From contig CAZYHZ010000012.1 of the NCBI GenBank assembly GCA_964647625.1, positions 1 through 64,000 of the forward strand: 64,000 nucleotides of DNA, written 5' to 3'. The notes beneath the pieces are model-generated. The model made no database searches. It saw only the letters and a list, made by a program, of their open reading frames with translations, and was not told the DNA's origin. The position numbers and the translations under genes were made by a program. Every line of letters begins with the position of its first letter. Position 1 is the stretch's first letter. This stretch comes from an uncultured Acidobacteriota bacterium (GTDB lineage Bacteria; Acidobacteriota; Polarisedimenticolia; Polarisedimenticolales; DASRJG01). Shown one piece after another: positions 11,476 to 45,993 of this stretch.

Positions 11476-12249
11476 CTAACGGGTCATCTTCACCGCGCGA
11501 TCGTTCTGCGGCTGCACGGGACGCGCGTTTCCGGGGTAGCGCTTCCCGAACCGGTCGATCTCCGACGTGGAGACCGTCACGGGAGTCTTCATCACGAACC
11601 AGGTCACGCCTTCCGTGCACGGGGGCGTCGTCAGCGAGCCCTCGAACGTGTAGTACCCGCGCTCGCGGGGGAGCAGCCCGGCCGGATCGAGCGTCACCGC
11701 CGGGAAATCCGACGGCTCACCGCCGGCTTGCGGGAGCGAGCCCCACACCAGCTCGACCACGCCGTTGGAATCGCCGGATGTCAGGAGGACGGCGACCACC
11801 GCGAGGTGGCCCTTGTCGTCCTTGTGGACCAGGTGGACGACCATCGGAAACTCTTTGCCGTCGACGTGCTCCTCGCTCGGCTTGTGAAAATGGAACTGCA
11901 CGAGCGCGAATCGCTGCTTGCCCACGAGAATGCTGCTTCCCGGATCGACGTTCACCATGATCGTGTGGCCGTTGTCGACCACGTGCAGTCCGGTTCGCTT
12001 GTAGTCGAACTGGATCGGCGGCAGATCGGCCGGCTTCGCGTTGTGGATGTCGATCGGCGACTGACGATGCCCGTGCGAGCACGCGGCGAAGTCGCTCTCG
12101 AGATCGCCCCAGTGCTCGGGGCCGGTCGCACCGGTGTAACCCCAGTGGGGGGGTGTCGCATCCGCGTGCTCGGCGGCGCGGACGCCGGTCGCGGCGATGA
12201 TCGCGAGCAAGACGACTCCGATCGAGCCGAGCGATCGTACGAGACTCAT
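11476..12249 (-). CDS. cah: Alpha-class carbonic anhydrase, periplasmic
   Basis: Signal peptide plus the alpha-CA motifs QSPIDI, FHFHKPSEEHVDG and GSLTTPPCTEGVTW. Confidence 0.9.
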   Translation of the reverse strand: MSLVRSLGSIGVVLLAIIAATGVRAAEHADATPPHWGYTGATGPEHWGDLESDFAACSHGHRQSPIDIHNAKPADLPPIQFDYKRTGLHVVDNGHTIMVNVDPGSSILVGKQRFALVQFHFHKPSEEHVDGKEFPMVVHLVHKDDKGHLAVVAVLLTSGDSNGVVELVWGSLPQAGGEPSDFPAVTLDPAGLLPRERGYYTFEGSLTTPPCTEGVTWFVMKTPVTVSTSEIDRFGKRYPGNARPVQPQNDRAVKMTR

Positions 12250-12323: not shown

Positions 12324-13433
12324 ATGCTCGCGGGGGGTTGGCGTTTGGAGGGTGCGCACCGGCATGCGACCGTTTTCGCGGTGTTGCTCGCCATCTCGAT
12401 CGCGCCCCCGGCGCGCGCGGCCGAGGTCGATCCGCCGAAGCAGAGCATCCGAGACCTGAAGCTGTTCCGCCTCGAGTTCGACAACGACAACCTGCTGGGC
12501 TCCGACGACGCGTTCACCGCGGGCTTCGGCATCCAGTTCCACTCGGAGCTGAACGACACCTGGCACCGCGGCTATGCCGGCTGGATCGGCAAGCTGCCCG
12601 GCCTCGGCGACGACGGCCCCGGCGGCCGGATCGTGCGCTGGGCGTACAGCATCGGCCAGATCATCCTCACGCCCAAGGACATCACGAATCCCGACCCGCA
12701 GCCCAACGACATCCCGTGGGCGGGGATGCTCGGCATCACCGGCACCTGGTACTCGTACGACAACAAGAGGCTCGCGGCGCTTCAGGTCTACGTCGGATGC
12801 CTGGGACCGTGCTCCCACGCCGAGCAGGTTCAGCGGTTCATTCACGAAGACCTCGGGCTTGGCGATCCTCCCAAGGGATGGCACAACCAGCTCTCGAACG
12901 AAGCGCTCGCGAACTTGAACTACGAGCTCCGTTACAAGCTGGTCGCCTCGCCCCCGGCGGCGTACTGGGATGGAGCGTTCGCCGGTGACATGTCGATCGG
13001 CGCGCAGGGTGCGGTGGGGAACCTCACGACGCGGCTGGTCGCCGAGTTCGAGGCTCGCTGGGGCTGGGCGCTCCCGATGGGATTCGCGAAGGTCTCCGAC
13101 CCGCCGGGGATCGGCATGGCCCTCGACCCGACTTACATCGACCCGAAGCAGACGCCAAGCGACGTGAAGCGTTGGCGCTTCTTCTTCAGCTTCGTCGCCC
13201 GGTACCACTGGATCTCGTATCTGGCGGGCGCCGAAGGCGGGCCGACCGAAAACGGCGGATACCACCCGCCCTTGCGTCCGTATCCCGGGACGAGGGACCT
13301 TCTCTTCGGAATGCACCTCCTCCGATTCCCGTACGGCTTCCACGTCACCTATTACCGCTACGTCGATTCTCCGCCGGCCGGCTACTTGGACAAGCTGGAC
13401 TGGATGAACTTCTCGTTCGAGTATCGTTTCTAG
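12324..13433 (+). CDS. Outer-membrane protein, probably lipid A deacylase LpxR family (DUF2219)
   Basis: ATG start with a signal peptide (VFAVLLAISIAPPARA). The motif LEFDNDNLLGSDDAFTAGFGIQF resembles the conserved LpxR N-terminal block, and the C-terminus ends in aromatic residues (FEYRF). The family assignment is tentative. Confidence 0.7.
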   Translation: MLAGGWRLEGAHRHATVFAVLLAISIAPPARAAEVDPPKQSIRDLKLFRLEFDNDNLLGSDDAFTAGFGIQFHSELNDTWHRGYAGWIGKLPGLGDDGPGGRIVRWAYSIGQIILTPKDITNPDPQPNDIPWAGMLGITGTWYSYDNKRLAALQVYVGCLGPCSHAEQVQRFIHEDLGLGDPPKGWHNQLSNEALANLNYELRYKLVASPPAAYWDGAFAGDMSIGAQGAVGNLTTRLVAEFEARWGWALPMGFAKVSDPPGIGMALDPTYIDPKQTPSDVKRWRFFFSFVARYHWISYLAGAEGGPTENGGYHPPLRPYPGTRDLLFGMHLLRFPYGFHVTYYRYVDSPPAGYLDKLDWMNFSFEYRF

Positions 13434-15348: not shown

Positions 15349-16233
15349 CTACGGACGGGAGTGCTCCAGCAGGACGATGCCCGACATCCGGCGGCCTTCT
15401 TCGAGGCGCTTTTCCGACATGAACCGGGCCATGAGCTTGTAGATCCATCCGCCCGGCATCATCCGGTCGAGGCGCATGCTGTCTTCCCAGAGCGAGCGCC
15501 ACTCCGCCTCGCGCCAGCCGTGCGGCTCGAAGAACTTCGTCCCCTCGGCGGGTCCGAAGATCATCGGCGCGTTGCCGGCGGCCAGCATCGGCTCCCAGCG
15601 CTTCTTCAACATCGCGAGCAGGCGCGGCGAGGCGAGGTCGGTGATCCAGTAGCGGATCGAGGAGCGCGCGGCGAGAGCGCGTGAGAGAGCGGCGACGTGC
15701 TCGGCGGTCAGGTAGACGAGAAGCCCTTCCGTGACGGCGAGAGCAGGCCCGCCCGCGCGCTCGACGCGATCGAGCACGTCGGCCAGCGCTTGCGGCTGCG
15801 TCAGGTCGGCGGCGACGTACTCGAGCGCGCACACGGGCGTGGCGCCCGACAGCTGCTCGCGGACGTAGGCGGTCATCTCGGGCAGCTCGACGTGAAGCCA
15901 GCGCAGCGCCGGCGGCAGATTCAACCGGTACGCACGGGCGTCGAGCCCCGCAGCGAGATTGACGACGGTCCGGACGCCGTCGCGCGCGACCGCGCGAAGG
16001 ATCAGCTCGTCCATGACCGCGGTGCGCACGACCATCGCCCAGGCCGATGACGGTCCTTTGGGCATCTCGCGGACGATGCGCTCTCCGCGCTCTCCCGCCA
16101 GCCGCCGCGCGAACGGGTCGCTGAAGATCGCGTCGGCGCGCTCCGATTCCATCGCGCGGTAGATCGCGACCCATCGTGCGGTGTCCGAGACGTTCCGGAT
16201 CGACGTGCCGGAAGACGGAGTGTCGTCGCTCAT
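15349..16233 (-). CDS. Class I SAM-dependent O-methyltransferase (LCM/Mycobacterium Omt-like family)
   Basis: ATG at 16233 overlaps the TGA of the upstream rhodanese frame (ATGA). Methyltransferase motifs include VVNLAAGLDARAYRL and LAVTEGLLVYL. Confidence 0.85.
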   Translation of the reverse strand: MSDDTPSSGTSIRNVSDTARWVAIYRAMESERADAIFSDPFARRLAGERGERIVREMPKGPSSAWAMVVRTAVMDELILRAVARDGVRTVVNLAAGLDARAYRLNLPPALRWLHVELPEMTAYVREQLSGATPVCALEYVAADLTQPQALADVLDRVERAGGPALAVTEGLLVYLTAEHVAALSRALAARSSIRYWITDLASPRLLAMLKKRWEPMLAAGNAPMIFGPAEGTKFFEPHGWREAEWRSLWEDSMRLDRMMPGGWIYKLMARFMSEKRLEEGRRMSGIVLLEHSRP

Positions 16234-16367
16234 GCCGGGATTCTAGGCGATTCGAGCGGATATCCCGCCGCGCGCCACGCGTCGAGCCCGCCCTCGAGCG
16301 GATGCACTTGCTTCACGCCGTAGCTTCTGAGGATGAGCGCCGCCCGGGCACTCGAGGCTTCGTTCGG
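16230..16367 (-). CDS. In-frame continuation of the rhodanese domain after the TGA (PNEASSARAALILRSYGVKQVHPLEGGLDAWRAAGYPLESP); possible Sec read-through or pseudogene fragment
   Basis: The same frame stays open for 45 codons and encodes the canonical rhodanese C-terminus. It ends exactly in an ATGA overlap with the methyltransferase start. Confidence 0.45.
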   Translation of the reverse strand, partial: PNEASSARAALILRSYGVKQVHPLEGGLDAWRAAGYPLESPRIPA

Positions 16368-17174
16368 TCACGTGCAGAACAGGACGATCTCGCGATCGAG
16401 CGGAAGCTCGTGCCTCCGTGCATCGATCTCGTCGATCGCCATCCGGATCGCTCCGGGGAGCGTCGAGGGGTCGGCGGTCCACTCCCACGCATGCCGCAGG
16501 TCGACGATGACCACGGACTCTCCCGCGTCGATCCTCTCCTTCAGCTCGGAGGGGGTGATTCGAGCGGTGCGCAGCTCGCGGAGCACGGTCCGGCGGCGGA
16601 CGTATTTCCAAGCGACATATCCGGCGACCATGGCCAGAAAGATCAGCGCGGTTCGCCCTCCGGATCCCGCGAGCCAGTCTCCGAAACGCCGGAACGGCTC
16701 TCTGAGAAGCCAGCCGATCCCGAGGAGCACGGTGGCCTGCACGACGACGCCGATCGAATCGAGCGCGAGGAAGCGGGCGATCCCGATGCCCACCGTGCCC
16801 GCGAGCGGCGGCGTCACGGTGTTCAAGCCGGGCACGAACTTCGAGGTGAGGATCAAGATCGGACCGTTCTGCGAGAATCGATCCCGCGTCTCCCGCACGC
16901 ACGAGTCGGGCACGAGCGACATGCGGCACAAGAACGCGAGGATCCGCGCGCCGTAGCGCTTCCCGAGGACGTACCAGATCGAGTCGGCGAGCAGCGACGC
17001 GAGGAGGATGTCCACGACGGCCGCGCCCGGGTTCATGCGCCCGGTCCCGGCCAGGGTCCCGGCCGCGACGATGACCGGGGCCGACGGCACCGGCACGCCG
17101 ATCTGTTCGGCAAACACGAACAGGAACAGGACCCCGGCCCCGTGCCGGGCGAGTACGTCGAGCGGATCGGTCAT
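16368..17174 (-). CDS. DedA-family membrane protein fused to a rhodanese domain (ORF as called, ends at an in-frame TGA)
   Basis: ATG at 17174. A DedA/SNARE-associated TM core is followed by a C-terminal rhodanese domain start (ITPSELKERIDAGESVVIVDLR...REIVLFCT), then TGA. Confidence 0.8.
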   Translation of the reverse strand: MTDPLDVLARHGAGVLFLFVFAEQIGVPVPSAPVIVAAGTLAGTGRMNPGAAVVDILLASLLADSIWYVLGKRYGARILAFLCRMSLVPDSCVRETRDRFSQNGPILILTSKFVPGLNTVTPPLAGTVGIGIARFLALDSIGVVVQATVLLGIGWLLREPFRRFGDWLAGSGGRTALIFLAMVAGYVAWKYVRRRTVLRELRTARITPSELKERIDAGESVVIVDLRHAWEWTADPSTLPGAIRMAIDEIDARRHELPLDREIVLFCT

Positions 17175-25117: not shown

Positions 25118-27355
25118 TCAGAACGAGTAGTTGAACAGGACTCGCGCCCACGTGAAGTCGTAGCCGGGAATCTGCGCGCCGAGGAACACGCTCTCGCTCG
25201 CGCCGCCGTCGAGAGCGCCCATCCACGGAATCATGACGTCGCGCTGGAAGTTGTCCTCGTTCCAGTTCTCGTGGGTCACGGCGAAGGTGAGACCCATCGA
25301 GGCGCGCATCTTCCACGTCACGCTCCCTTCGACGACGGTCAGGTCCGACCTGATGTCCGGGAACGATGTGGCGTCTCCACCGGGCGCTCCGCCGGGGTTG
25401 AACGACCCGGTTTGCCGTCCGGTCGCGTCGGTCTTGTTGGCGCGGAAGTCGAGAACGACCTTGCTCTTGGCCAGCAGCGCGGTGAGCCCGAGCCCGTAGT
25501 CGTGCGTCGTGTCGTCGGTGTCGATGAACCAGTCGTCCACCGCGTTTTCGATCTGCGCCAGGCGATAGCTCGACGCCATCGACCAACGGAACCGGTCCTG
25601 ACCGTAGTTGCCCGAGACCGTGACGCCCGAGCCGGCGTCCACGGCGAAGTCGACCGCCCAGCCGTCCGACTTGTCGGAGGTCCGGCCGAACGCGGTCGAA
25701 GGATAGTCGTCCTTGATCGTGTGAGCCTGCACCCCGAGATCGAGGCGCTCGACCGGGGTGAACGTCGCCATCAGGCTGTACTTGTCGCGGTCGCGGTTCG
25801 ACTGATCGAAGTTCTGCGTGCCCGCCGGATTGAACGGGGTTTCTTCGTCGTACGAGTCGTAACGGCGCTTTCCGTGGGCGTAAGCGATCCGGATGTTCCC
25901 CCAGGCGGCGGGAACCCAGCCGGCGGAGAGGTCGTAAAGATCTTCGTTGGTCGTCGGCGCGAAACGGAACTTCCGATCCCACGTCTCGCGCCCGGCGCCG
26001 GCCCCGAGCGTGAGCCCGTGTCCCGGACGGAATGCGACGCGGCCGCCGTACGAAAACGTCTTGTAAGCGAACGGTTCGGCGACGACCGCGGATCCCGCCA
26101 GCTCGACGTCCGCATTCACCCAGTCGGGCGTGAGGTACTCCGGCGTGTTGTTGTCGTAGTTGTACTCGTGCGCGAACGCCTCGAATGAAAACCAGCGCAG
26201 CGGCTGGCCGTTGAACCGGGCGTCCCAGCGCGTGATGTCGATCGACCCGTCGTAGGCGGTGACGGGATTCCCGTCCTTCAAGACGACGAGTGGCGTCGCC
26301 GGGACGATCGCGGAGTTCAGCGTGAACGGCAGGAACATCTCGTCCTGACGGTTCTGGCCGATGGAGTACTCGAAGCTCGCGCGCCCCCAGTCGGCGACGC
26401 GCACCCCGGCGTGCAGGTTGAGCCAGGCGGCGCGGCTGTCGGGCGGCGCCGACAGCATGAGCGTCGCGGCCGCAGCCGTCAGGTCGCCGAGTGAGGGCGT
26501 GCCGTCCGTGGATCGCAGCGGATTGTCCACGACGTACGCGTCGTGGAGCGTTCCGCTTCCGGTCTCGCTCGTCAGCCGGTTCGTGAACTGCGACCAGACC
26601 ACGGAGCCCCCGACGTCGAAGCGGTCGCGGGCGTAGTCGAGCCCCACCCGCGCCTCGCGGCTGATGAAGTCGGTCCGGCCGGCGAACTCGGAGACATCGG
26701 CGCCCACGGTGAAGTCCGTCGCCATCGACTGCGGGTGCGTGCCGTTCCGCTGCGCCTGCGTGAACCCCGCGTCGAACGTCAGACCCTGCACGGGCGTCCG
26801 CCAGGTGACGTCGCCCGACGCGGTGTCCCGGCGGCTGCGTAGATTCGGATACGATTGCGCGGCATCGAGAGCGGCCGAGAGGATCCCGCCGCGGGCAAAT
26901 CCGGGAGCGTTCTGGATGTCATCTCGGATCGGTTCCGGGAAGAGCATGCGTCCGCCACCCGCGGACGCGAACAGCGTCTTCGACGTGTTCGAGTACCAGT
27001 CCGGGATCTGATCGTAGCGGACGTGAGCGCGGAAGGCGCCGGGCTTGGCGACATCGAGATCCAGCCGTTGATCTTCTTGCAGCAAGTCGACGGCCGCCAG
27101 TCCGAACGTGACCCCCTTGGCCCCCGCGTCGAACGTCAACCTCTCGAGAAAGAATCCGTTCGGGATCTCGCGAAACTCTTGAGCCTTCGACGACTCGTTG
27201 AGATCGTCCACGGTCCCGAGCCCGATCGCGACGGTTCCTGCCGTCGACGGCGCGGGTGAGGGCGCGGGCGCCGGCTGGGGCGCATCCTCCGCGCGCGCGA
27301 CGATCGCAGCCGCTCCGACGATCAGGGCGAAGAGCCGGCGGCGCGTCTTCATCAT
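25118..27355 (-). CDS. MtrB/PioB/MtoB-family outer-membrane beta-barrel (porin partner of decaheme cytochrome)
   Basis: 745 aa with a signal peptide and Gly/aromatic-rich beta-strand periodicity. The C-terminus is ...VLFNYSF. It lies immediately downstream of the decaheme cytochrome gene. Confidence 0.8.
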   Translation of the reverse strand: MMKTRRRLFALIVGAAAIVARAEDAPQPAPAPSPAPSTAGTVAIGLGTVDDLNESSKAQEFREIPNGFFLERLTFDAGAKGVTFGLAAVDLLQEDQRLDLDVAKPGAFRAHVRYDQIPDWYSNTSKTLFASAGGGRMLFPEPIRDDIQNAPGFARGGILSAALDAAQSYPNLRSRRDTASGDVTWRTPVQGLTFDAGFTQAQRNGTHPQSMATDFTVGADVSEFAGRTDFISREARVGLDYARDRFDVGGSVVWSQFTNRLTSETGSGTLHDAYVVDNPLRSTDGTPSLGDLTAAAATLMLSAPPDSRAAWLNLHAGVRVADWGRASFEYSIGQNRQDEMFLPFTLNSAIVPATPLVVLKDGNPVTAYDGSIDITRWDARFNGQPLRWFSFEAFAHEYNYDNNTPEYLTPDWVNADVELAGSAVVAEPFAYKTFSYGGRVAFRPGHGLTLGAGAGRETWDRKFRFAPTTNEDLYDLSAGWVPAAWGNIRIAYAHGKRRYDSYDEETPFNPAGTQNFDQSNRDRDKYSLMATFTPVERLDLGVQAHTIKDDYPSTAFGRTSDKSDGWAVDFAVDAGSGVTVSGNYGQDRFRWSMASSYRLAQIENAVDDWFIDTDDTTHDYGLGLTALLAKSKVVLDFRANKTDATGRQTGSFNPGGAPGGDATSFPDIRSDLTVVEGSVTWKMRASMGLTFAVTHENWNEDNFQRDVMIPWMGALDGGASESVFLGAQIPGYDFTWARVLFNYSF

Positions 27356-27364
27356 CGCCCTCCG

Positions 27365-28222
27365 CTACCGCATCAACCGGCTGCCGCTCGGGTGATTCGA
27401 TCCGTGGATCGCCGGATGGCAGTTGATGCAGGCCCGATTGAAGACGAATCGGGACTGCGCGGTTTGGGGGATCGTCGGGTGCAAGTACCCGATATGGCAG
27501 CTCTGGCACAGCCGCGGCGCGGCGGCGACGAGCAGGTTGTCGTGAAGCGACCCGTGCGGGTCATGACAGTTCAGGCAGTTCTCCCGCACGGGAGGATGCT
27601 CGAAGAGGTTCGGCCCCCGTTTCTCGTCGTGGCAGCGGACGCAGTTGTCGTTGACCGACGCGTCGACGAGAAGCGCACGAGTCGAGGTGCCGTGCGGGTT
27701 GTGGCAGTCGGTGCACTGGAGCTTGCTCTCCCGAAGCGGCATGTGGCTCGACATCATCGTTCGCGTGCGCTGCATCTTGTGGCAGGTGAAGCAAACGTCG
27801 GATTGATCGGGCCGCTTCAAGAGGCCGGCGTTCCGTCCGTGCTCGTTGTGGATGGCGTGGCACGACAGGCACGACACGTCGTTTCGCTCGTGGACGGATC
27901 CCATCCACCCGCGGACGTGCGCTTGGTTGTGGCAGGCGAGGCACGTCTTGGCGCTCGCCTTCGCGTCGAGCTTCGCGGGATTGACGATCTTCGACGCCTC
28001 GCCGCCGCCGTCGACGTGCGCCTTCCCCGGGCCGTGGCACGACTCGCAATCGGGGACTCCGGGATGGTCCGCGAAGTGGCGAAGCGACTGCGCTTGGACG
28101 TCGTGACAGGTGACGCAGACATCGGCGCCGACGCGAGCGTTCGGGTCGGGACTCTCCGCAAACGCCGGCGCGGCCAGCAGCAGCGCGACGATTCCGGCGA
28201 TGACGAGCGGCCGACGCGTCAC
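27365..28222 (-). CDS. Decaheme c-type cytochrome (MtrA/PioA/MtoA/DmsE family)
   Basis: GTG start with a signal peptide. Ten CxxCH motifs are spread through the 285-aa protein: CVTCH, CESCH, CLACH, CLSCH, CFTCH, CTDCH, CVRCH, CLNCH, CQSCH and CINCH. Confidence 0.9.
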   Translation of the reverse strand: MTRRPLVIAGIVALLLAAPAFAESPDPNARVGADVCVTCHDVQAQSLRHFADHPGVPDCESCHGPGKAHVDGGGEASKIVNPAKLDAKASAKTCLACHNQAHVRGWMGSVHERNDVSCLSCHAIHNEHGRNAGLLKRPDQSDVCFTCHKMQRTRTMMSSHMPLRESKLQCTDCHNPHGTSTRALLVDASVNDNCVRCHDEKRGPNLFEHPPVRENCLNCHDPHGSLHDNLLVAAAPRLCQSCHIGYLHPTIPQTAQSRFVFNRACINCHPAIHGSNHPSGSRLMR

Positions 28223-28726: not shown

Positions 28727-29163
28727 CACCGGCCGCCTTTCTCCGCCAGCCAACGGTCGATGCGCGCCGAGATCTCGTCGCGCGCAGCTCGGAACGCGTC
28801 GAGCTTCGCTTCCTCCGTCCCCTCGAACGCCGCCGGGTTTTCGACCGGCCAGAAGTCGCGCGTGATGACGCCCGGGAAGACGGCCGGGCATTTCTCATTC
28901 GCGTCATCGCAGACGATGATGAGGTGCCGAACGGGCAAGCGCCCGAGGTAATCCTTGACGCTTTTCGGCCGCTGGCTCGAGATGTCGATCCCGATCTCGC
29001 GCATCGCGGCCACGGCGAGCGGGTGAACGGAGGGCGCCGGCTCGATCCCGGCGCTGTGAACTTCGAAGTCGGTTCCCGTCTTCTTCCGCATGAGGCCTTC
29101 CGCCATCTGGCTCCGGGCGGAGTTTCCCGTGCACAGGAACAAGACGATGTGATTGAGACTCAT
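28726..29163 (-). CDS. arsC: Arsenate reductase, LMW-PTP (thioredoxin-coupled) type
   Basis: CTGNSARS P-loop in HIVLFLCTGNSARSQMAEG, plus the downstream Cys pattern of this family. Confidence 0.9.
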   Translation of the reverse strand: MSLNHIVLFLCTGNSARSQMAEGLMRKKTGTDFEVHSAGIEPAPSVHPLAVAAMREIGIDISSQRPKSVKDYLGRLPVRHLIIVCDDANEKCPAVFPGVITRDFWPVENPAAFEGTEEAKLDAFRAARDEISARIDRWLAEKGGR

Positions 29164-29215
29164 GCGTCCTCCACAGTCGGTTGCGCTGATTCCATTATTC
29201 TACTACTATCGAAAT

Positions 29216-29599
29216 ATGAAATCCACGGCAGGCGCCAGAACAAGGGCGGATGCGACCGTTCGCTATGCGGAGATGTTCGCGGCCCTCGGAAACGAAAGCC
29301 GGCTCCGCATTCTCAGGGTGCTCCTGTCCGCCCATCCCGATGGAATGGTAGCCGGGGACATCCAGGCCGAGATCGACATCCCGCCTTCGACGCTGTCGCA
29401 CCACCTGGAAAAACTGAGGGTGGAAGGCCTCGCCACGGTGAAACGGGAGAGCACGTTCCTTCGCTACGCCGCGAACACCGAGGCCCTCCAGGAGCTGCTC
29501 GGCTTCCTCTTCGCCGAGTGCTGCTCGAGGAGCAAGGCCGTGAGCGCCGAATCGATCGTGAAGCTTTCCGAGATTCGAACCCACCGGAGGTCATCGTGA
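29216..29599 (+). CDS. arsR: ArsR/SmtB family metalloregulator
   Basis: ATG at 29216. A winged HTH (ESRLRILRVLLSAHPDGMVAGDIQAEIDIPPSTLSHHLEKL) and C-terminal Cys pair (ECC) are present. The stop overlaps the arsM start (GTGA). Confidence 0.9.
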   Translation: MKSTAGARTRADATVRYAEMFAALGNESRLRILRVLLSAHPDGMVAGDIQAEIDIPPSTLSHHLEKLRVEGLATVKRESTFLRYAANTEALQELLGFLFAECCSRSKAVSAESIVKLSEIRTHRRSS

Positions 29600-30444
29600 G
29601 CGGAGACCTCAAAAGCGCAGTCAAAAAGAAGTACGCCGAGGCGGCGACGCTCGCGGCTCAGGGCGAGGCGGCGTCGTGCTGCGGCGAGTCGTGCGGCTGC
29701 GCGAGCGACGCGCAGGCGATCGACCCCATCACCTCCAACCTTTATACCGACCACGAGAAAGACTCCGTCCCCGAAGGCGCGCTCCGCGCGTCGCTCGGCT
29801 GCGGCAACCCGACCGCTCTGGCGGAGCTGCATCCCGGCGAAATCGTCCTCGACCTCGGCTCGGGCGGCGGGATCGACGTCATCCTCTCCGCCCGCCGCGT
29901 CGGGCCGGCAGGAAAGGCCTACGGCCTCGACATGACCGACGAGATGCTGGCGCTCGCAAGGCGAAACCAGGCCGACGCGGGAGTCGAAAACGTCGAGTTC
30001 CTGAAAGGGGAGATCGAAGATATCCCCCTACCGGACGCCGCCGTCGACGTCGTCATCTCGAACTGTGTGATCAATCTATCGGCCGACAAGGACAAGGTGC
30101 TCCGCGAGGCGTTCCGCGTGCTCAAGCCCGGCGGCCGGTTCGCCGTGTCCGACGTCGTCGTTCAGGGCGAGGTGCCGGCCGACATCCGCCGAAGCGTCGA
30201 GCTTTGGGTCGGCTGCGTCGCCGGCGCGCTGGAAGAGAACGAGTACAAGGCCAAGCTCGAGCGCGCCGGGTTCGGATCGGTCTCATTCGAAGCAACCCGC
30301 GTCTACAAGCTCGAGGACGCCCGCGAATTCCTGTCGGCGCGCGGGATCGATGTGGTGGACGCCGCCCCGAAGGTCGAAGGCAAGTTCAGGAGCGCGTTCA
30401 TTCGCGCAGTGAAGCCGGGCCAACGCCCTCGCAGTATTACTTGA
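29596..30444 (+). CDS. arsM: Arsenite S-adenosylmethionine methyltransferase
   Basis: GTG at 29596, 5 nt after GGAGG. A Cys-rich N-terminus ([12 protein letters not shown]) and the SAM motif [12 protein letters not shown] are present, plus a conserved Cys in [10 protein letters not shown]. This is typical of ArsM. Confidence 0.9.
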
Positions 30445-33400
30445 TGATCGCAGTCACCTTGTACTGCCAGTTGTGACCGTCGTTCATGCTCGGGTCGTTC
30501 CAACCCGTCTGAGACTTGTTCAACTCCATCACCATCGTCCAGGCGAGGGTCTCCGGGTCCCGACGATACACATGGAATCGCGTGACGTTGACCGGCGCGC
30601 GTGGTGACGGCATCGACCAAGTGAGCTGGAGGTTGCCGTTTACCTTGTTCAGCTTCAAGTCGCCGACGTCGATTCCGGCGCTCTGCGAGATCTCCATCTC
30701 CGGATCGACATCCGAGTGATCCGCGACGGTGCCGTTCGCGCAAGCGCTGCCGGATCCGCACCCATCGACGTCCGAGTTGTACGTCCCGTTCACGCCGTCG
30801 CGCTGGTCGTTGGTGCCGCCGCGGGCGCCGTAGATCGTGCCGGCCGGCTGGTGAGTGCGATCGTTCCACACCGCGACATCGATCGGATTCGACGTCACGG
30901 CGTTGCCGCACGTATCGGTTGCAATCAAGGTCATCAGATAATCTCGGCCGATCGGGCTGCAGGCACCGTTTCTCTCCGCCCGTAGGTGAACCGCTCCCGG
31001 CTCGTAGACGCAGTCACGCGTCGAGTTGCCGTCGCCGGTCCCGTAGGCGTTTTCCGGCTGGCTCGAAGCGCAGCTCGCGAACGAGATCGACGCGATGCCG
31101 CACTGGGCCTGGGCTTGAGCGCCCGTGTCCTGCACGGTGAAATCAACGTAACCATGATTTGGCGGCCACAGGACGGGGCATGCGCCGAGCGAGGGCTGCG
31201 TCGTGAAAACCGGAGGCGTCAGGTTCGGCGCGTGATGGCAGCCCGTCGCCGGATCGCACGTGTCGGTCGTGCAGCAGTTGCCGTCATCGCAGCTGGTCGG
31301 GGCTCCGGGGCGACACGATCCGCCGCCGCAGACGTCTCCGGTTGTGCAGGCGTTGCCGTCATCACAGGGATTGGTGTTGTTGGTGTGAACGCAGCCGGAA
31401 GCCGGGTTGCAAGAGTCCGACGTACAAACATTGCCGTCGTCGCAGTTGGGCGCGGGTCCGCCGTGGCACGCTCCGCCGCCGCACGTGTCATTCGTCGTGC
31501 ACGCGTTGTCGTCGTCGCAAGAGTTCGAGTTGTTGGTGAAGACGCAGCCTGACGTCGGGTTACAGGAATCGGTGGTGCAGACGTTCCCGTCATCGCAGGC
31601 GTGTGGCGCGCCCGGATTGCAGCTGCCGCCACCGCAAGTGTCGTTGTCCGTGCAGACGTTGCCGTCGTCACAGGGGTTCGTGTTGTTCGCGTGGACGCAG
31701 CCGGAAGTCGGGCTGCACGTATCGGTCGTGCAGACGTTGCCGTCGTCACAGTTGGGCGCAGGTCCGCCGTGGCACGTTCCGCCGCTGCAGACGTCGCCGG
31801 TGGTACAGGCGTTGCCGTCATTGCACGGACTCGTGTTGTTGGCATGGACGCAGCCCGAAGCCGGATTGCAGCTGTCGTCCGTGCACGGGTTCGCGTCATC
31901 GCAGTTGGGCGCAGGTCCACCGTTGCAGGCTCCGCCGCCGCAGCTGTCGTTCGTGGTGCAGGCGTTGCCATCGTCGCACGCGTTCGTGTTGTTTGCGTGA
32001 ACGCAGCCCGAGGTCGGGCTGCATGAGTCGGTGGTGCAGATGTTGCCATCATCGCAATTGGGTGCGGCGCCGCCATGGCAGCTCCCGCCGCCGCAGACGT
32101 CTCCAGTGGTGCAGGCGTTGCCGTCGCTGCACGGGTTCGTGTTGTTGACGTGGACGCAACCCGAAGACGGATTGCAGCTGTCCGTCGTACAAGGATTGCC
32201 GTCGTCGCAGTTGAGCGCAGGCCCACCGTTGCAGGCTCCGCCGCCACAGGTATCGCTCGTTGTGCAGGGATTGCCATCACTACACGGGGCGTCGTTGTAA
32301 ACATGGACGCAGCCCACGGATGGATCGCACGAATCGTCGGTGCAGACGTCGCCGTCGTCGCAGAGTCGCCTCGGGCCAGACTGACAGCTTCCGTTCAGGC
32401 AACTGTCGATCGTGGTGCAGGCGTTGCCGTCGTCGCAGGGATCGGTGTTGTTGACGTGTACGCAGCCCAAATACCGGAGACACAAGTCGGTCGTGCAAGC
32501 GTTGCCGTCGTCGCAGGAGGGCGTGTTGTCGACGTGGACGCACCCCGTGGCCGGGTCGCAGGAATCATCTGTGCACAAATTGCTGTCATCGCAGTTTCGC
32601 GGAGGGCCGCTGTGGCAGGTTCCGGCAGCGCAGGTGTCGTTCGCCGTGCACGCATCGCCGTCATCGCAAGGGGCGGCGTTGTAGGCGTGAGAGCAGCCCG
32701 AGATTCCGTTGCAGACGTCGTCGGTGCAGACATTGCCGTCTGAACAAAGTAGGCTGCCGTTGTCATCTATATTGCCATTGCAATCGTCGTCGATGCCGTT
32801 GCAGGTTTCCGGCACTCCCGGGTGGACCGAACGGTTCGTGTCGTTACAGTCGGCACCGTTCGTCACATACCCCGCGGGAATGATCCCGTCGCAAGCCTCA
32901 ACCGAATCTCCTGAGGTCCCGTAGCCATCTCCATCAGCGTCGCGGTAGCCAATCACGCCGTTCGGACAGGCGCAGTAGATTCCTCCCGTCGGAGTGAGCG
33001 TGTCTGCTCCCCAGACGATCATTTGTGTTCCCGTCCAAACCGCGGTGTGCCCATAGCGCGGCCCGGGAAGGCCCGCGCCCACGGAGGTGGCCGTCCAGGT
33101 ATCCGTTGATGGGTTGTAACGGCCGCCCGTGTTGAATTGGTAAGGGGAGAAGTTAATGTTGTACCCGCCCCAGACGATCATCTCGGTCCCCGTCCAGACC
33201 GCACAGTGGGCGTAGCGTGAGACGGGATCATTCGGTCCGGTCGATGTGGATGTCCACGTGTCCGCTGATGGGTCGTAGCAGCCACCGGTGTTGAAGAATA
33301 CGTGGCTGGTGCCCACGAGCCCACCGTATCCGCCCCAGATAACCATCCGTGTCCCCGTCCAGACCGCGGTTTGGTATGCGCGTTTCTCGGGGGCGTTGAC

Positions 33401-36115
33401 CTGCGTAGACATCGTCCTCCATGTGTCCGTCGACGGGTCGTACAGCCCTCCGGTATTGAAGAACGAGTTGTGGCTCGACCCACCCCAGACGATCATGCGA
33501 GTCCCCGTCCATACAGTCGAATGTCCCGCTCGTGCGTCGGGGACGTTTGGCCCCGTCGAGGTGCGCGTCCATCTGTCAGTGGTCGGCTCGTAGCGGCCGC
33601 CTGTGTTGAAGTAGACGTACGAGGCAGAGGAGTAGTCATAGATGTATCCGCCCCATACGATCATCTGCGCCCCTGTCCACACTGCGGTATGGCCCTCGCG
33701 GGCTTCGGGGACGTCGGAATTCGTCGCAGTCGGAGTCCAGGTATCCGTGGACGGGCTGTAGCGGCCGCCTGAATTGAAGTCGGAGGAGCCCACGGAGGGT
33801 TTTCCACCCCAGATGATCATCTGGGTCCCGGTCCACACCGCGGAGTGTTCAGAACGCGCCGCGGGGACGCCTGTACCGGTCGAAATCGCCGTCCAAGAAT
33901 CCGTCGACGGGTTGTAGCGACCGCCTGTGTTGACGTCGAAGGCGGACGTGCCCGATTGGCCGCCCCAGACGATCATCTCCGTGCCCGTCCACACTGCGGT
34001 GTTCCCGGAAAGCGGCGCGGGAACGAAGGCTCCCGAGGCGGTTGGTGTCCACGTGTCCATCGACGGGTTGTAGCGGCCCCCGGTGTTGTAAGTACTGTAA
34101 GGGTAGTTGGCGGTTCCACCCCAAACGATCATCTCCGTCCCCGTCCAGACCGCGGTCTGGTAGGACCGTGCGCCGGGGGCGTTCGTCCCCGTGGAAGTCG
34201 TCCTCCAGGTATCCGTCGACGGGTTGTATCGGCCGCCTGTGTTCAGCAAGATCGAGTTGGAGCCATTCAATCGGAATCCACCCCAAACGATCATCTCCGC
34301 CCCGGACCAAACTGCGGTGTGCCCGCTTCGTTGGCCTGGGACGTTTGCGCCGGTGGACGTTGCCGCCCATGTGTCCGTCAATGCGTTATAGCGGCCACCG
34401 GTGTTGAGGACAACGTAGGACGACGTCGGGTAGTCGTAGATCCATCCGCCCCAGACGATCATCTCCGTTCCTGTCCAAATTGCGGTGTGTCCCTCGCGCC
34501 CTGGGGGAACGTTGGTGCCCGTGGAGATGGCCGTCCAAGAGTCCGTCGATGGGTTGTAGCGCCCACCGGTGTTCAAGTACGTGGTCGAGGTTCCGGAGTA
34601 GCCTGATCCGCCCCAGACAATCATCTCCGTCCCTGTCCAAATTGCGGTGTGCTCCTCACGCGCTGCGGGGACGTTGCTGCCCGTGGACGTCGGGTTCCAC
34701 GTGTCCGTTGATGGGTTGTATCGCGCGCCGGTGTTGACGGAGGCGCCGAAAGAGGAAGCGGACTCTTGGAACCCGCCCCAGACGATCATCTCCTCCCCGG
34801 TCCACAACGCGCTGTGGCCTGCACGCGCGCCAGGAGCGTTGGTGCCTGTAGAGGTTGGCTTCCAGGTGTCCGTTGCCGGGTTGTAGCAACCGCCCGTGTC
34901 TAGGTAATCGTACGGAGGGGATGCGCCACCGCTCCCGCCCCAGACGATCATCGTAGTACCCGTCCACACCGCCGTGTGATCCAAACGCGCCGATGGGACG
35001 TTGACGTCCATCGAGGTAACCACCCATGAGTTCGTCGAGGGGTTGTAGCGGCCGCCCGTGTTCAAACCTGTATAGCTGTCGTAGGTTCCGCCCCAAACGA
35101 TCATTTCAGTTCCAGTCCACACCGCGGTATGTTGACGGCGCGGATCGGGTTCGTCGATTCGAGTCGGCTCCCAGGTGTCGTTAGTACAAATCGTCGGTGG
35201 GACGGGTGGGGCTTCAAACGGTCCCGTTGACGGTTCGATCGCAAGCGCGATCCCGGTTGCGGTTGTTTCCCACCAGTAATCAAACGTGCGCTTCGGCCAA
35301 ACGACGTTAGCCGTTTCGATCCCTGCATCATTTCGAGCGAGGATCGCGGAAACCACGAACGCGTCGGGTGTTTCCTCGAGCCCGCTGAGCCGGTTCGTCG
35401 GGAGAGATTCGGCGGTCGCATTGAACCGCCTCGCGAGGGCGCGGAGCTGCTCGTGCCATTCGTCAGCGTTGAGCATCAGCGTTCGCTTGTGAGTTTGGTC
35501 CACCTCTGAACTGGTGTCGTGGATTCCGAGCTTGATGCGACCCTCGACAAAGTGTCCGCCCATGGACTTCATGCACTCAACGCCCTTACACGCGGCCAGC
35601 GCTGCCTCGGCCCTTGCCTTCACGTCACCGTGGAATCGAGAGTCAGCGGAATACCAGTCGTGGATCAGTCGGTCGACCAGCGTCTGCCGTGCAAGCGTCT
35701 CTGCGATGACGTACGGGTCGTCGCCGAGAGCGTGGAACAACTCGCGCAGGATCGCGCCGTCGCGCGTCTCGCGCGCCATCCGGTTCAGCTCGGCCTGGAG
35801 ATCGGCCGCCGTCACCGGATGCTGCCAGTACGCCTTCAACGCGTTCGACTTCTTGAGGTAGCCCTCGACCTTCGCTCGGAGTGCCGTGTCGGGCATCACC
35901 GCCGACAGCGGCGGCTTCGGCGTCTTGTTTTCCGCCGGCCAGATGCGATGGTTCCAGTAGACCTGCTCGATGGAGCGCTGGTACTCGACGCGCTCATCGA
36001 TGGTGAGGCTGCGGGCGAAGCTAGGCGGAGCGCTCGCGACGATTGCGAACACAACGCTCGCAAGCAACGGACGCCACGCACCGACGGATCTTTTCATTGG
36101 AAGCTGCCCCCTCAC
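30437..36115 (-). CDS. Giant secreted protein (1892 aa): N-terminal domain, about 20 Kelch/galactose-oxidase-type beta-propeller repeats, about 10 Myxococcus-type cysteine-rich repeats, C-terminal beta-sandwich domain
   Basis: Signal peptide present. Kelch-like repeats follow the pattern HTAVWTGTEMIVWGG...YNPSTDTW. The Cys-rich repeats read CDDGNACTTDSCNPxSGCVHxNNTNPC. The 3' end overlaps the arsM 3' end by 8 nt (convergent). Confidence 0.9.
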   Translation of the reverse strand: MRGQLPMKRSVGAWRPLLASVVFAIVASAPPSFARSLTIDERVEYQRSIEQVYWNHRIWPAENKTPKPPLSAVMPDTALRAKVEGYLKKSNALKAYWQHPVTAADLQAELNRMARETRDGAILRELFHALGDDPYVIAETLARQTLVDRLIHDWYSADSRFHGDVKARAEAALAACKGVECMKSMGGHFVEGRIKLGIHDTSSEVDQTHKRTLMLNADEWHEQLRALARRFNATAESLPTNRLSGLEETPDAFVVSAILARNDAGIETANVVWPKRTFDYWWETTATGIALAIEPSTGPFEAPPVPPTICTNDTWEPTRIDEPDPRRQHTAVWTGTEMIVWGGTYDSYTGLNTGGRYNPSTNSWVVTSMDVNVPSARLDHTAVWTGTTMIVWGGSGGASPPYDYLDTGGCYNPATDTWKPTSTGTNAPGARAGHSALWTGEEMIVWGGFQESASSFGASVNTGARYNPSTDTWNPTSTGSNVPAAREEHTAIWTGTEMIVWGGSGYSGTSTTYLNTGGRYNPSTDSWTAISTGTNVPPGREGHTAIWTGTEMIVWGGWIYDYPTSSYVVLNTGGRYNALTDTWAATSTGANVPGQRSGHTAVWSGAEMIVWGGFRLNGSNSILLNTGGRYNPSTDTWRTTSTGTNAPGARSYQTAVWTGTEMIVWGGTANYPYSTYNTGGRYNPSMDTWTPTASGAFVPAPLSGNTAVWTGTEMIVWGGQSGTSAFDVNTGGRYNPSTDSWTAISTGTGVPAARSEHSAVWTGTQMIIWGGKPSVGSSDFNSGGRYSPSTDTWTPTATNSDVPEAREGHTAVWTGAQMIVWGGYIYDYSSASYVYFNTGGRYEPTTDRWTRTSTGPNVPDARAGHSTVWTGTRMIVWGGSSHNSFFNTGGLYDPSTDTWRTMSTQVNAPEKRAYQTAVWTGTRMVIWGGYGGLVGTSHVFFNTGGCYDPSADTWTSTSTGPNDPVSRYAHCAVWTGTEMIVWGGYNINFSPYQFNTGGRYNPSTDTWTATSVGAGLPGPRYGHTAVWTGTQMIVWGADTLTPTGGIYCACPNGVIGYRDADGDGYGTSGDSVEACDGIIPAGYVTNGADCNDTNRSVHPGVPETCNGIDDDCNGNIDDNGSLLCSDGNVCTDDVCNGISGCSHAYNAAPCDDGDACTANDTCAAGTCHSGPPRNCDDSNLCTDDSCDPATGCVHVDNTPSCDDGNACTTDLCLRYLGCVHVNNTDPCDDGNACTTIDSCLNGSCQSGPRRLCDDGDVCTDDSCDPSVGCVHVYNDAPCSDGNPCTTSDTCGGGACNGGPALNCDDGNPCTTDSCNPSSGCVHVNNTNPCSDGNACTTGDVCGGGSCHGGAAPNCDDGNICTTDSCSPTSGCVHANNTNACDDGNACTTNDSCGGGACNGGPAPNCDDANPCTDDSCNPASGCVHANNTSPCNDGNACTTGDVCSGGTCHGGPAPNCDDGNVCTTDTCSPTSGCVHANNTNPCDDGNVCTDNDTCGGGSCNPGAPHACDDGNVCTTDSCNPTSGCVFTNNSNSCDDDNACTTNDTCGGGACHGGPAPNCDDGNVCTSDSCNPASGCVHTNNTNPCDDGNACTTGDVCGGGSCRPGAPTSCDDGNCCTTDTCDPATGCHHAPNLTPPVFTTQPSLGACPVLWPPNHGYVDFTVQDTGAQAQAQCGIASISFASCASSQPENAYGTGDGNSTRDCVYEPGAVHLRAERNGACSPIGRDYLMTLIATDTCGNAVTSNPIDVAVWNDRTHQPAGTIYGARGGTNDQRDGVNGTYNSDVDGCGSGSACANGTVADHSDVDPEMEISQSAGIDVGDLKLNKVNGNLQLTWSMPSPRAPVNVTRFHVYRRDPETLAWTMVMELNKSQTGWNDPSMNDGHNWQYKVTAIIK
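31200..32780 (-). repeat. Tandem ~150-bp coding repeats (Cys-rich repeat array); all six frames open here
   Basis: Repeated gacgacggcaacgcctgcacc-type blocks are visible, and many overlapping shadow ORFs occur in the ORF track. Confidence 0.6.
33000..35100 (-). repeat. Tandem ~150-bp coding repeats (Kelch blade array)
   Basis: Recurring ccccagacgatcat...gtccagaccgcggtgtg blocks are visible. Confidence 0.6.
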
Positions 36116-40985: not shown

Positions 40986-42416
40986 ATGAACTCCCATGTT
41001 CCGTCCCAGACACCCCATGCCGATCAGGCGCCCGACCATCCCCCACATCACGCGAAGGCGAACCCTCCGACGCGGCGGATCAGACGTTGGTTGAGGCACC
41101 ACAAGGTCGAAATCATCCTGGCGGTGATATTCGCGGTCCCATTCGCCTTTCTCGCGGAGCGCCTCGTGGGGGTTCATGAGCACGACCCCTACAAAATCCA
41201 CGTCGTCGAATCGACCGATACCGACAAGGAAACGAAGGAGCTATTCGACGACCTGGCAAACCATTCGCCGCTGCGAGTTCAATCGATGGGCGACGTGCCG
41301 GTCAAGCTCGAGGTCAGCATTCTGCCCAATGACGACATCGCCACCGCGCAGAAACTGGCGGCCGACTTGGCGACCGCGCCGGATACGCTGATGATCATCG
41401 GCCATCTACCGAGCGGAATCACAGAAGCCATTCTGCCGATCGTCATGAAGGAGCGTCCACAGATCCCATACATTTCGACGTCGGCGAGCGCGGATGAGCT
41501 GTTGGCGAATTGCGACCCAAAGGACGTCGCCGTCAATGGATTCGTTCCACTGATTCAGCCGTCGCCTCGAAATTGTGATGAAGCCGCAGCCGCGGTGAAG
41601 TATGCGCTACAAGAGAAGAAGCAACGCTTCCTGCTCGTCACGGACAAACCTCCGGAAAAGGACCCGTATCTCGCCTCGCTCAGCAGCGCTTGGGAGAAAG
41701 AAATCGTCAAAGGGCACGCCTCCGTCGTCGGCAACCACGCGATGGATCTGCCGCTCTCGGACGAGCAGCTCAAGAATTGGAACCCCGACTGTATTCTCTA
41801 CGCGGGTGGGGTCGGCGTGGCCCAAACGCTGATGAACTCGCTGGCAAGCTCCGAGTCCCTCGCCAAAGCTTTGATGGCATCCGAGGTGAAGCTTCTCGCG
41901 ATTTTCGCCGATTCCGTGATTGAGTCTCGCGACAAGGACACAAATCTCATCAGTCTGTCCACCGCCCCGCGGGGGAAAGTGACGAACCTCAACGGGCTTA
42001 CGGACCTACGGTTCACGTACGCCGCCAACGCGGATGACTATAACGTGCACGACAACGAGTACGCGCAGGATGCGCTCAGGATCGCGACACAGCTGATCGC
42101 CGACCTCAGCGAGCGCGGAGGAGATCTTCGTTACCGGCTACGATCTCTCTTGCACTTGGAGACCGTCAAGGACGCACGGCGGAACCTGATTCAGATCATG
42201 GCGCAAAACGCCCACCTGAGATCCTGGTACGAATGCAACGGCGGAGAACCGTGTGTCTTCACGAAGTTCTACGGCTCCGAAGGAATGTTTCACTCGAGAC
42301 GAATCAACGGAATGTTTCACGTGTGGGAGGCGGACAGCGGGACCGCGAAGATGAAGGATGTCGACTACTGGCACCCGCCCAAGAGCGCGCTCCTTTACGC
42401 GTCCGCGATCAAATGA
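40986..42416 (+). CDS. Membrane-anchored periplasmic-binding-protein type 1 (LivJ/ANF-receptor-like) domain protein
   Basis: N-terminal TM (VEIILAVIFAVPFAFLA), then a PBP1-like domain (MIIGHLPSGITEAILPIVMKERPQIPYISTSAS). GC drops to ~57% here. Confidence 0.75.
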   Translation: MNSHVPSQTPHADQAPDHPPHHAKANPPTRRIRRWLRHHKVEIILAVIFAVPFAFLAERLVGVHEHDPYKIHVVESTDTDKETKELFDDLANHSPLRVQSMGDVPVKLEVSILPNDDIATAQKLAADLATAPDTLMIIGHLPSGITEAILPIVMKERPQIPYISTSASADELLANCDPKDVAVNGFVPLIQPSPRNCDEAAAAVKYALQEKKQRFLLVTDKPPEKDPYLASLSSAWEKEIVKGHASVVGNHAMDLPLSDEQLKNWNPDCILYAGGVGVAQTLMNSLASSESLAKALMASEVKLLAIFADSVIESRDKDTNLISLSTAPRGKVTNLNGLTDLRFTYAANADDYNVHDNEYAQDALRIATQLIADLSERGGDLRYRLRSLLHLETVKDARRNLIQIMAQNAHLRSWYECNGGEPCVFTKFYGSEGMFHSRRINGMFHVWEADSGTAKMKDVDYWHPPKSALLYASAIK

Positions 42417-42448
42417 CCAAGCGATGACCGTCGAGAGCGTGGCTCGGG

Positions 42449-44326: not shown

Positions 44327-44861
44327 CCTCGGGGACTTCGACGACGGGGAACCCGTCGTCGTAGGGAGGCGCGTTGAGGATCGTCTGGGCGAGCTCGTGC
44401 GCGAACGGCTTCAGGATCTGATTCTCGAAATCGACGGCGGATTCCGTCTTCCAAAACATCGGCAGAGTCGATGTGAACTGACTGAAGTCCCGAGAATGCT
44501 TCGCCGTGGCGAGCGCCGGGAAGGATTCGCCGTCAAAGTACCGCACCGGGACCACGAGGTCGCAATGAGCAACACGCTCGCGCTCGACGAAGGTCATCCA
44601 CTCCGAAACGCACCAGCGGGATCGGAAGTACAGGGGCGACCAGACGCACAGGATGCAGCGTGACCGCTTGAGCGAATCCGCCATCTTCTTTCGCCAGTCG
44701 ACGCCTGTCTTGATGTCCTCGGTATCGAAGAATATCTGGACGTCCTGGCGCTGAAGCTCCAGCTTCAACCAATAGTGCAGCTTGGTCTTGACGGTCTCAT
44801 GCCACGCGTCGCTTTCCCGGTCGCGCTTGTAGCTGAAGAAAACGTCGTACAGATAGTCCAA
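44280..44861 (-). CDS. TIR-domain protein
   Basis: TTG start, 5 nt after GAGGTG. TIR motifs are YDVFFSYKRD and SRCILCVWSPLYFRSRWCVSEW. Confidence 0.88.
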   Translation of the reverse strand: MDYLYDVFFSYKRDRESDAWHETVKTKLHYWLKLELQRQDVQIFFDTEDIKTGVDWRKKMADSLKRSRCILCVWSPLYFRSRWCVSEWMTFVERERVAHCDLVVPVRYFDGESFPALATAKHSRDFSQFTSTLPMFWKTESAVDFENQILKPFAHELAQTILNAPPYDDGFPVVEVPEDGVTPEQPIRRPAGD

Positions 44862-44997
44862 CGCTCACCTCGCCGATCGAACCCGCTTGAATCGCGAGCG
44901 AAGAGATGTCGCCGTCGAATCTCAGCCTGGCTATGGGGCCAGCGAGCCGATTCTAACCCCGAACGTTCTGCCGAGGCACCACTTCTTGTCGCCGTCC

Positions 44998-45873: not shown

Positions 45874-45993
45874 ACATTCTCCGAACCGATTGCGCTCTGA
45901 TGCGGTATGATCCCGGTCAGATAGCCACCCGAGGAATCGGGCATCCCGCCCAATTCGAAACGGTGCACGTCTTACCACAGCGGGGTCACCATC

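Follow-up and report, generated by a model that had tools for sequence, protein, structure and literature searches.

The 64,000-nucleotide stretch of DNA analysed here (the window, part of an 86.6-kb contig from an uncultured bacterium of the phylum Acidobacteriota) carries on its minus strand a gene for a DedA-family membrane protein that is interrupted by an in-frame TGA codon. The open reading frame (ORF) begins with ATG at 17174, extends for 268 codons and reaches TGA 16370..16368 right after the residues ...REIVLFCT; coordinates and sequence both agree with an earlier interpretation of the letters and translations alone (referred to below as the sequence-only reading). Past this codon the reading continues in frame for another 45 codons (PNEASSARAALILRSYGVKQVHPLEGGLDAWRAAGYPLESPRIPA) up to a second TGA at 16232..16230, and it ends, again as had been described, in a four-nucleotide ATGA overlap with a gene for a methyltransferase. 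The overlap fits the idea that ribosomes translate the 45 codons beyond the internal UGA. Gene callers nevertheless stop the gene at 268 amino acids (aa), both in the window and in the related assemblies examined. The gene and its immediate surroundings comprise the following features.

16230..17174, minus strand: complete recoded coding sequence, 314 aa, with a DedA/VTT membrane domain, a rhodanese domain and predicted selenocysteine (Sec, U) at residue 269
16368..16370, minus strand: in-frame UGA, predicted from comparative data to be read as selenocysteine, residue 269
16374..16376, minus strand: codon of the invariant Cys267 of the C-x-U motif, from the sequence and an alignment of homologues
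16230..16233, minus strand: ATGA overlap of the true stop codon and the downstream start codon (ATG 16233), from the sequence
15349..16233, minus strand: downstream S-adenosylmethionine (SAM) methyltransferase of the LCM/TIGR00027 family, recognised by family-profile matches; a neighbour only, outside the conserved unit

As argued in the following sections, we consider it very probable that the gene is intact and that its internal TGA is recoded as Sec. The candidate selenoprotein proposed by the sequence-only reading is thus upheld, among other evidence by a Sec/Cys pair at the codon, a covarying hairpin behind it, frozen synonymous sites in the TGA-containing forms of the gene and the selenoprotein character of the nearest curated rhodanese family, NF041203.

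The in-frame TGA alternates with cysteine codons

To see the codon in a broader context, we scanned one genome per species, retaining the 80 closest species genomes with one locus each. At the aligned codon 67 of them have TGA, eight TGT and five TGC, so the comparison of orthologous loci that the sequence-only reading had recommended reveals no mutation unique to this genome. The architecture of the protein is the same in all 80 genomes, and in all of them the frame downstream of the codon is open and conserved (...PNEATSARVALLLR...RPLxGG...W). The hosts include Acidobacteriota (Terriglobia, Blastocatellia, Thermoanaerobaculia), Methylomirabilota, Binatia, Nitrospinota and Limisphaerales; Korobacter/Koribacter relatives are represented, as are complete genomes such as OY969786.1. 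In forest-soil metagenomes, too, the nearest relatives of the gene have both the TGA and the hairpin described below.

A protein search of ENA, JGI and Logan assemblies retrieved an identical 268-aa product together with 18 others (261-309 aa, 47-62% identical), and all 19 end exactly at the equivalent of residue 268 (...[FY]C[TA]). Full-length homologues (305-357 aa) run on from this point as C-P-N-E-A-[TS]-S-A-R, and the second Cys of their C-x-C motif, which aligns with the UGA, is invariant among 62 Cys forms. Across the relatives the Sec-form motif reads L-[FY]-C-[TSA]-U, represented in the window by L-F-C-T-U. In a neighbour-joining tree the Cys forms are scattered among the Sec forms, with at least seven switches between the two states. 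Since the codon alternates only with Cys, it qualifies as a Sec/Cys pair. The terminal stop codon of the window gene and of 39 of the 74 Sec-form homologues is likewise TGA, which therefore also serves as a real terminator, so the genetic code of these organisms is not reassigned. An identical gene, with the internal TGA in place, is present in two independent assemblies from different sequencing runs (SRR12313479 and SRR12313477).

A conserved hairpin follows the TGA codon

Shortly downstream of the codon, the transcript can form a structure resembling a bacterial selenocysteine insertion sequence (SECIS).

16335..16353, minus strand: SECIS-type hairpin, with stem arms 16353-16347 and 16341-16335 and the loop CGGGC at 16346-16342, from folding and comparison

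The hairpin (GAGUGCC / CGGGC / GGCGCUC) starts 14 nucleotides (nt) past the UGA, has seven base pairs (bp) including one G-U pair and a folding energy of -12 kcal/mol; the sequence-only reading had described the same stem, loop and spacing, and we find them unaltered. A published model of the bacterial SECIS specifies a loop of 3-9 nt, a stem of 4-16 bp, a G among the first two nucleotides of the loop, a spacing of 16-37 nt that separates the loop from the UGA and a free energy of at most -7.5 kcal/mol (PMC13188914). With a loop of 5 nt, a stem of 7 bp, a G at loop position 2 followed by another G, a UGA-loop spacing of 21 nt and the energy given above, the window hairpin agrees with the model on every count. 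The earlier suggestion that it fits the bacterial SECIS is thus borne out, the more so as the structure covaries among the TGA forms.

This covariation is seen in 64 distinct Sec-form sequences, which align without gaps from the TGA onward. The 7-bp helix is paired in 96.9% of the cells of this alignment. The outer pair occurs as CG (43 sequences), GC (8), UG (3) and AU (1), and each of two inner pairs shows one C-G to U-A double change, giving compensatory changes at three pairs. In 500 shuffles neither the pairing nor the covariation observed was ever reached, slid registers drop to 18-63% pairing, and RNAalifold recovers the core 5 bp of the hairpin. The loop follows the consensus C-G-K-G-Y, with C25, G26 and G28 invariant in the Sec forms.

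Synonymous sites, compared within the family itself, provide the strongest control. Third-position entropy in the four stem codons is 0.12-0.27 bit in the Sec forms versus 0.8-1.8 bit in the Cys forms (n=13), and it amounts to 1.2-1.9 bit in the flanking codons of the Sec-form genes themselves. At alanine codon 7, GCC is used by 62 of 64 Sec forms and by two of 13 Cys forms. At least six of the seven base pairs can form in 98% of the Sec forms (63/64), as against 38% of the Cys forms (n=13). It is this excess of constraint in the Sec forms over the Cys forms that constitutes the evidence for the hairpin.

Two TGT forms, L039 and L006, retain all seven base pairs, L039 even with the exact Sec-type stem sequence. 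In these two loci the hairpin looks like a fossil SECIS left behind by a recent Sec-to-Cys change.

Domain architecture and the active-site loop

When the TGA is taken for a sense codon, a Pfam search recognises two domains in the product, and an alignment of homologues adds a cysteine motif within the first of them.

16710..17090, minus strand: VTT/DedA domain (PF09335), aa 29-155, 43.9 bits against a cut-off of 33.9
16269..16556, minus strand: rhodanese domain (PF00581), aa 207-302, spanning the TGA, 49.1 bits against a cut-off of 22.2, E = 8e-13
16899..16928, minus strand: C-x8-C motif within the DedA domain, Cys83...Cys92, 'LCRMSLVPDSCVRE', from the alignment of homologues

In the AlphaFold2 model of P0006, a Cys-form homologue (mean pLDDT 83.6), the DedA part has nine helices and is followed by the rhodanese domain. 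The C-terminal domain of this model superimposes on solved rhodaneses with a root-mean-square deviation of 1.5 A over 105 columns (3tp9) and a TM score of 0.89 (3gk5), so that a rhodanese fold is confirmed for the modelled homologue. Directly after the last transmembrane helix of the window protein there is a strongly basic linker, KYVRRRTVLRELRTAR, which by the positive-inside rule suggests that the C-terminal rhodanese domain is cytoplasmic.

The active-site loop of the window protein reads C-T-U-P-N-E-A-S-S-A-R (Cys267-Thr-Sec269-Pro-Asn-Glu...) and follows the strand IVLFC; alignments of homologues identify C267, C/U269, P270 and E272 as its invariant residues. In the model of P0006 the strand comprises residues 262-266, C267-T268-C269 form a coil and a helix begins at residue 270. 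The sequence-only reading placed the TGA exactly at the catalytic Cys of rhodaneses, which turns out to depend on the side from which one counts. Counted from the helix, the canonical position is residue 269, and the catalytic Cys of both domains of 6mxv indeed falls there without a gap; counted from the beta-strand, it is Cys267, the residue matched by the catalytic Cys of 3tp9 with a two-residue insertion in the loop. The catalytic Cys of 1yt8 falls between the two. Judging from these alignments, one can safely say that the active-site loop contains a C-x-U motif, in which the identity of the canonical catalytic residue depends on the alignment register.

The C-x8-C pair, embedded in the signature 'LCRxSLEPDSCVR', marks the DedA domain of the rhodanese-fused subfamily: the motif is found in 77 of 88 loci, and Cys83 and Cys92 are both invariant in the 62 Cys-form homologues. 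This suggests a second redox or metal site, which may communicate with the C-x-U loop. Compared with the equivalogs for undecaprenyl-phosphate flippases, the DedA part scores far below the cut-offs (34 bits versus 250 for NF052604 and 33.8 versus 236 for PRK10847). Of the two basic residues of the YghB motif, which lie on the second re-entrant helix and presumably bind undecaprenyl phosphate, the second appears to be replaced (KFVPGLNT).

Relationship to known selenoproteins and rhodaneses

The best NCBIfam match of the rhodanese domain is NF041203 ('rhodanese_LYCAU'), with 84.1 bits, below the cut-off of 115 bits. The two have in common the fold, the L-[YF]-C-x-U motif and the alternation of Sec with Cys; they differ in that members of NF041203 are stand-alone domains of about 126 aa, while the polytopic membrane protein of the window has the domain as its C-terminal module. 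Rhodaneses with C-x-U are listed as a predicted selenoprotein family in the literature, as 'COG0607 form 2' (PMC9312934) and 'form 3' (PMC13188914), and the statement of the sequence-only reading that rhodanese-type sulfurtransferases are a reported selenoprotein family is therefore correct, the C-x-U motif being shared between NF041203 and the window protein. Neither of these two papers mentions DedA, VTT, PF09335 or TVP38 in connection with the C-x-U rhodaneses.

Fusions of DedA and rhodanese domains are known in a subfamily of COG0586, for example PA1209 of Pseudomonas aeruginosa, and their purpose is described as unclear (PMC10127716, PMC12893004). PA1209 (311 aa) resembles the window protein in its two-domain architecture and its size, and Sec is not mentioned in the papers dealing with it (PMC10127716, PMC12893004). 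In the window protein and in the majority of its relatives from soil, UGA/Sec takes the place of the second Cys of C-x-C seen in the Cys-form homologues, a set without PA1209.

Other proteins share single aspects of the arrangement. In TsoB (NF045694), a selenoprotein resembling a rhodanese/DsbD fusion, a Sec-containing rhodanese domain is likewise fused to a membrane module; the membrane partner is, however, DsbD-like, a UxxxxU motif contains two Sec residues, and the window domain matches the TsoB model with a mere 21 bits, far below the cut-off of 805 bits. YgaP of Escherichia coli, too, anchors one rhodanese domain to the inner membrane, with a fold that the P0006 model matches (5hbo, 5hbl), but its domain order is opposite, its anchor consists of two transmembrane helices, and it has a single catalytic Cys and no Sec. 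As for the RNA element, the window hairpin is similar to the SECIS of the E. coli fdhF type in lying within the coding sequence just after the UGA, in its small G-containing apical loop and in its permitted distance and stability. The two are unrelated in sequence, no bulged U is seen in the window hairpin, and its loop is of the form CGKGY.

NCBIfam has no full-length model for the DedA-rhodanese architecture, and our literature search found no paper joining a DedA or VTT domain with a selenoprotein. The Sec motif, the fold and the architecture are thus all known, and it is the Sec-containing fusion that is apparently undescribed.

Possible mechanism and function of the protein

By analogy with known bacterial selenoprotein genes, SelB carrying Sec-tRNA(Sec) would bind the hairpin while the ribosome sits on the UGA, Sec would be inserted at residue 269 instead of termination, and translation would continue for 45 codons to the real stop, with some 268-aa termination product probably coexisting. 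The full product would be a 314-aa inner-membrane protein with a transporter-like DedA/VTT domain at its N-terminus and a rhodanese domain at its C-terminus. Sec269 may act as a nucleophile, either carrying sulfane sulfur or selenium (in an adduct of the Se-S or Se-Se type) or attacking a substrate in its oxidised form, and Cys267 may act as the resolving residue that turns the adduct into a selenenylsulfide. A thiol or a flavoprotein disulfide reductase would then re-reduce the selenenylsulfide, and the redox cycle would serve or gate whatever the DedA domain moves across the membrane. Sec at C-x-U is under strong selection, which suggests a central role in the fusion for nucleophilic or redox chemistry at the loop. 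The scheme as a whole, from the nucleophilic Sec269 and the resolving Cys267 to the reductase and the coupling to the DedA domain, is the chemistry that we favour, and in our judgement it could equally well prove right or wrong. In its favour are the invariance of both residues of C-x-C/U and of the Pro and Glu of the loop, the rhodanese fold, and the pyridine-nucleotide disulfide oxidoreductase gene that adjoins the DedA-rhodanese gene in at least five distinct loci.

Three observations speak against this functional model. The loop contains Glu and no Arg, unlike the loops of thiosulfate-binding rhodaneses; clustering of the flanking ORFs in 81 loci uncovered nothing that is conserved across lineages; and the role of any DedA-rhodanese fusion has been stated to be unclear (PMC10127716).

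The principal competing idea about function is that the C-x-U motif and the C-x8-C pair form a site that binds or reduces soft metals or metalloids (Hg, Cu, or oxyanions of As, Se or Te) rather than one for sulfur transfer, in which case the protein would be a device for detoxification or uptake. Four invariant Cys/Sec residues are compatible with such a role, as are genes for mercuric-reductase-like flavoproteins adjoining in several loci and an ORF resembling SCO1/SenC, recognised by motif inspection only, upstream in 16 loci. Arsenate reductases with the rhodanese fold, moreover, do exist. A DedA mutant of Ralstonia metallidurans has been reported to affect selenite uptake, as cited in PMC11422209. 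Against these points, the neighbourhoods are lineage-specific and mostly unconserved, and there is no metal-resistance operon around the window gene. We consider a metal or metalloid role rather unlikely.

How is the internal UGA decoded?

The interpretation that the UGA encodes Sec has to be confronted with several observations that do not favour it. Taken singly, the window hairpin is no better than chance (z = 0.37; 117 of 200 shuffles fold equally well or better), the local sequence around it having 65-69% G+C; such a single-sequence fold is ordinary for GC-rich DNA, and the significance of the hairpin derives from the comparative data only. The Cys forms, too, pair at 76% of the hairpin cells, because the peptide S-A-R-x-A-L itself favours a partial palindrome. 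Rfam scans of the whole window with gathering scores and of 16200..16450 with an E-value threshold gave no SECIS-type match, only two chance hits. ARAGORN detected not a single tRNA gene in the 64-kb window, nor any tRNA-Sec in the flanking regions of 60 related loci, and Pfam scans of 30 long ORFs of the window detected no SelA, SelB or SelD. No match in the window or in 87 loci was obtained with tblastn and E. coli SelA, SelB and SelD queries either, which is a weak negative. The absence of sel genes from these sequences neither supports nor refutes Sec decoding, because the window covers 64 kb of the 86.6-kb contig. Acidobacteria have been reported to include Sec-decoding organisms (PMC1794560), which is indirect support.

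A scan of the whole window for in-frame TGA codons flanked by coding-like sequence yielded no credible candidate besides the DedA-rhodanese gene. A second candidate selenoprotein was encountered on L083, the contig of a 59%-identical relative, 4 kb downstream of its DedA-rhodanese gene.

L083:12727-13350, minus strand: candidate selenoprotein with a ResA/TlpA-like thioredoxin fold, TGA at 13071..13069 in the context WTYG-TGA-INC

This gene has the classic UxxC arrangement and a hairpin after the UGA, and gene callers split it into ORFs of 93 and 104 aa. It lends indirect support to Sec decoding in hosts of the DedA-rhodanese family.

A different view would be that the UGA is read through, though not as Sec: near-cognate Trp or Cys might be inserted at a leaky UGA-C, Cys might be delivered on tRNA(Sec), or the gene might have two products, a 268-aa DedA-only protein resulting from termination and, in smaller amount, the full-length form. 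A C follows the UGA in every case, which makes a weak context for termination, the window is devoid of detected Sec machinery as just described, and bacterial Sec insertion is usually inefficient, making a coexisting truncated product likely. Yet the position alternates only with Cys, which is the signature of Sec/Cys pairs, and the hairpin lies at a SECIS distance, has a conserved G-containing loop and is maintained only in the TGA forms. The nearest curated family, furthermore, consists of rhodanese selenoproteins with the same C-x-U motif, and the UxxC protein on L083 adds a further candidate in a related host. On balance, read-through without Sec seems improbable.

The two remaining explanations, which the sequence-only reading had kept as alternatives, can be regarded as excluded on account of the conservation of the TGA and the hairpin across genomes and the agreement of the two assemblies. 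A recent nonsense mutation that cut a Cys-type DedA-rhodanese gene in this organism could look alike in a lone genome whose gene has a stop in frame and then an open tail, and annotation pipelines do treat the gene as encoding a 268-aa protein, but the chance of a pseudogene is negligible, for the same TGA recurs in 67 of the 80 species genomes and in several phyla, the tail is under purifying selection in all 80, the hairpin covaries, and conservation of this kind would not be seen in a truncated rhodanese devoid of both the active-site loop and the C-terminal half. Just as implausible is a sequencing or assembly error by which TGC or TGT was misread as TGA, an a priori possibility with nothing further in its favour, as the identical gene occurs with TGA in assemblies of two independent runs and the same codon is TGA in dozens of unrelated assemblies.

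Genomic neighbourhood

The sequence-only reading speculated that the product of the adjacent SAM methyltransferase gene could methylate a chalcogen. An LCM methyltransferase gene is adjacent in none of about 85 related loci apart from the two assemblies of the window organism, and the idea is without support, because the methyltransferase adjoins no other member of the family. A more recurrent neighbour, present in at least five distinct loci from separate lineages (L083, L084/L085, L036, L071 and partly L076), is a gene for a pyridine-nucleotide disulfide oxidoreductase. These loci are a minority, and the gene is not found beside the window gene.

L083:9229-10626, L084:6360-7787 and the flanks in L036 and L071: pyridine-nucleotide disulfide oxidoreductase (Pyr_redox_2 plus dimerisation domain)

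Several other parts of the window are worth recording. At 25118..28222 (minus strand), a gene for an MtrB/PioB-type outer-membrane porin adjoins one for a multihaem cytochrome (paired CXXCH, NrfB-like), and the pair looks like an extracellular electron-transfer module; MtrB/PioB is listed elsewhere as a selenoprotein family, and the copy in the window is free of in-frame TGA. A gene for an alpha (eukaryotic-type) carbonic anhydrase with a signal-peptide-like N-terminus (11476..12249, minus strand) lies between two MFS_3 transporter genes. A giant ORF of 1892 aa (30437..36115, minus strand) combines many Kelch/beta-propeller repeats with Dictyostelium-type CTDC repeats. Within a 506-aa ORF (28924..30444, plus strand), the SAM methyltransferase domain (Methyltransf_31/11/25) is limited to residues 300-450; the first 300 residues match nothing, and the start may be over-extended.

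The region at about 42000..58600 has a G+C content of about 0.62-0.65, as against about 0.65-0.70 in the first 30 kb of the window, and the gene cluster it contains looks like an anti-phage defence island. The following members of this defence-like cluster were recognised.

42449..44326, minus strand: ParA/MinD-like ATPase with HEAT repeats
44280..44861, minus strand: TIR-like N-terminus
50154..51242, plus strand: nucleoside deoxyribosyltransferase-like ORF
51255..54629, minus strand: Endonuclease_NS + TPR-S + trypsin protein, 1124 aa
55118..56548, minus strand: TIR_2 protein
57262..58548, plus strand: TPR/TPR-S protein

Implications

A bolder possibility, which we regard as doubtful, is that the protein represents a novel class of membrane selenoenzymes, either a chalcogen transporter that works covalently through C-x-U or a lipid-carrier flippase gated by a selenol or thiol. 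In the former case the protein would move persulfide, selenide or selenite-derived selenium; in the latter, the redox switch would communicate with the membrane domain's invariant C-x8-C pair. Such a class would be predominant in soil Acidobacteriota, Methylomirabilota and Binatia, and in either form it would provide a chemistry for the unexplained DedA-rhodanese fusions and tie the DedA family directly to selenium or sulfur trafficking.

Irrespective of the exact function, the prediction of Sec changes how these genes are to be seen. A product truncated at 268 aa lacks the catalytic loop and goes by the name of a plain DedA protein; of the 80 closest species genomes, 67 have the gene in its Sec form. 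The protein would be a new member of the selenoproteome from soil phyla little covered in the reviews consulted, adding a polytopic membrane protein to a prokaryotic list dominated by soluble redox proteins, and the DedA-rhodanese fusions gain a testable chemistry. To specialists on selenoproteins the finding is no conceptual surprise, yet it points to a membrane selenoprotein that is widespread and systematically mis-annotated.

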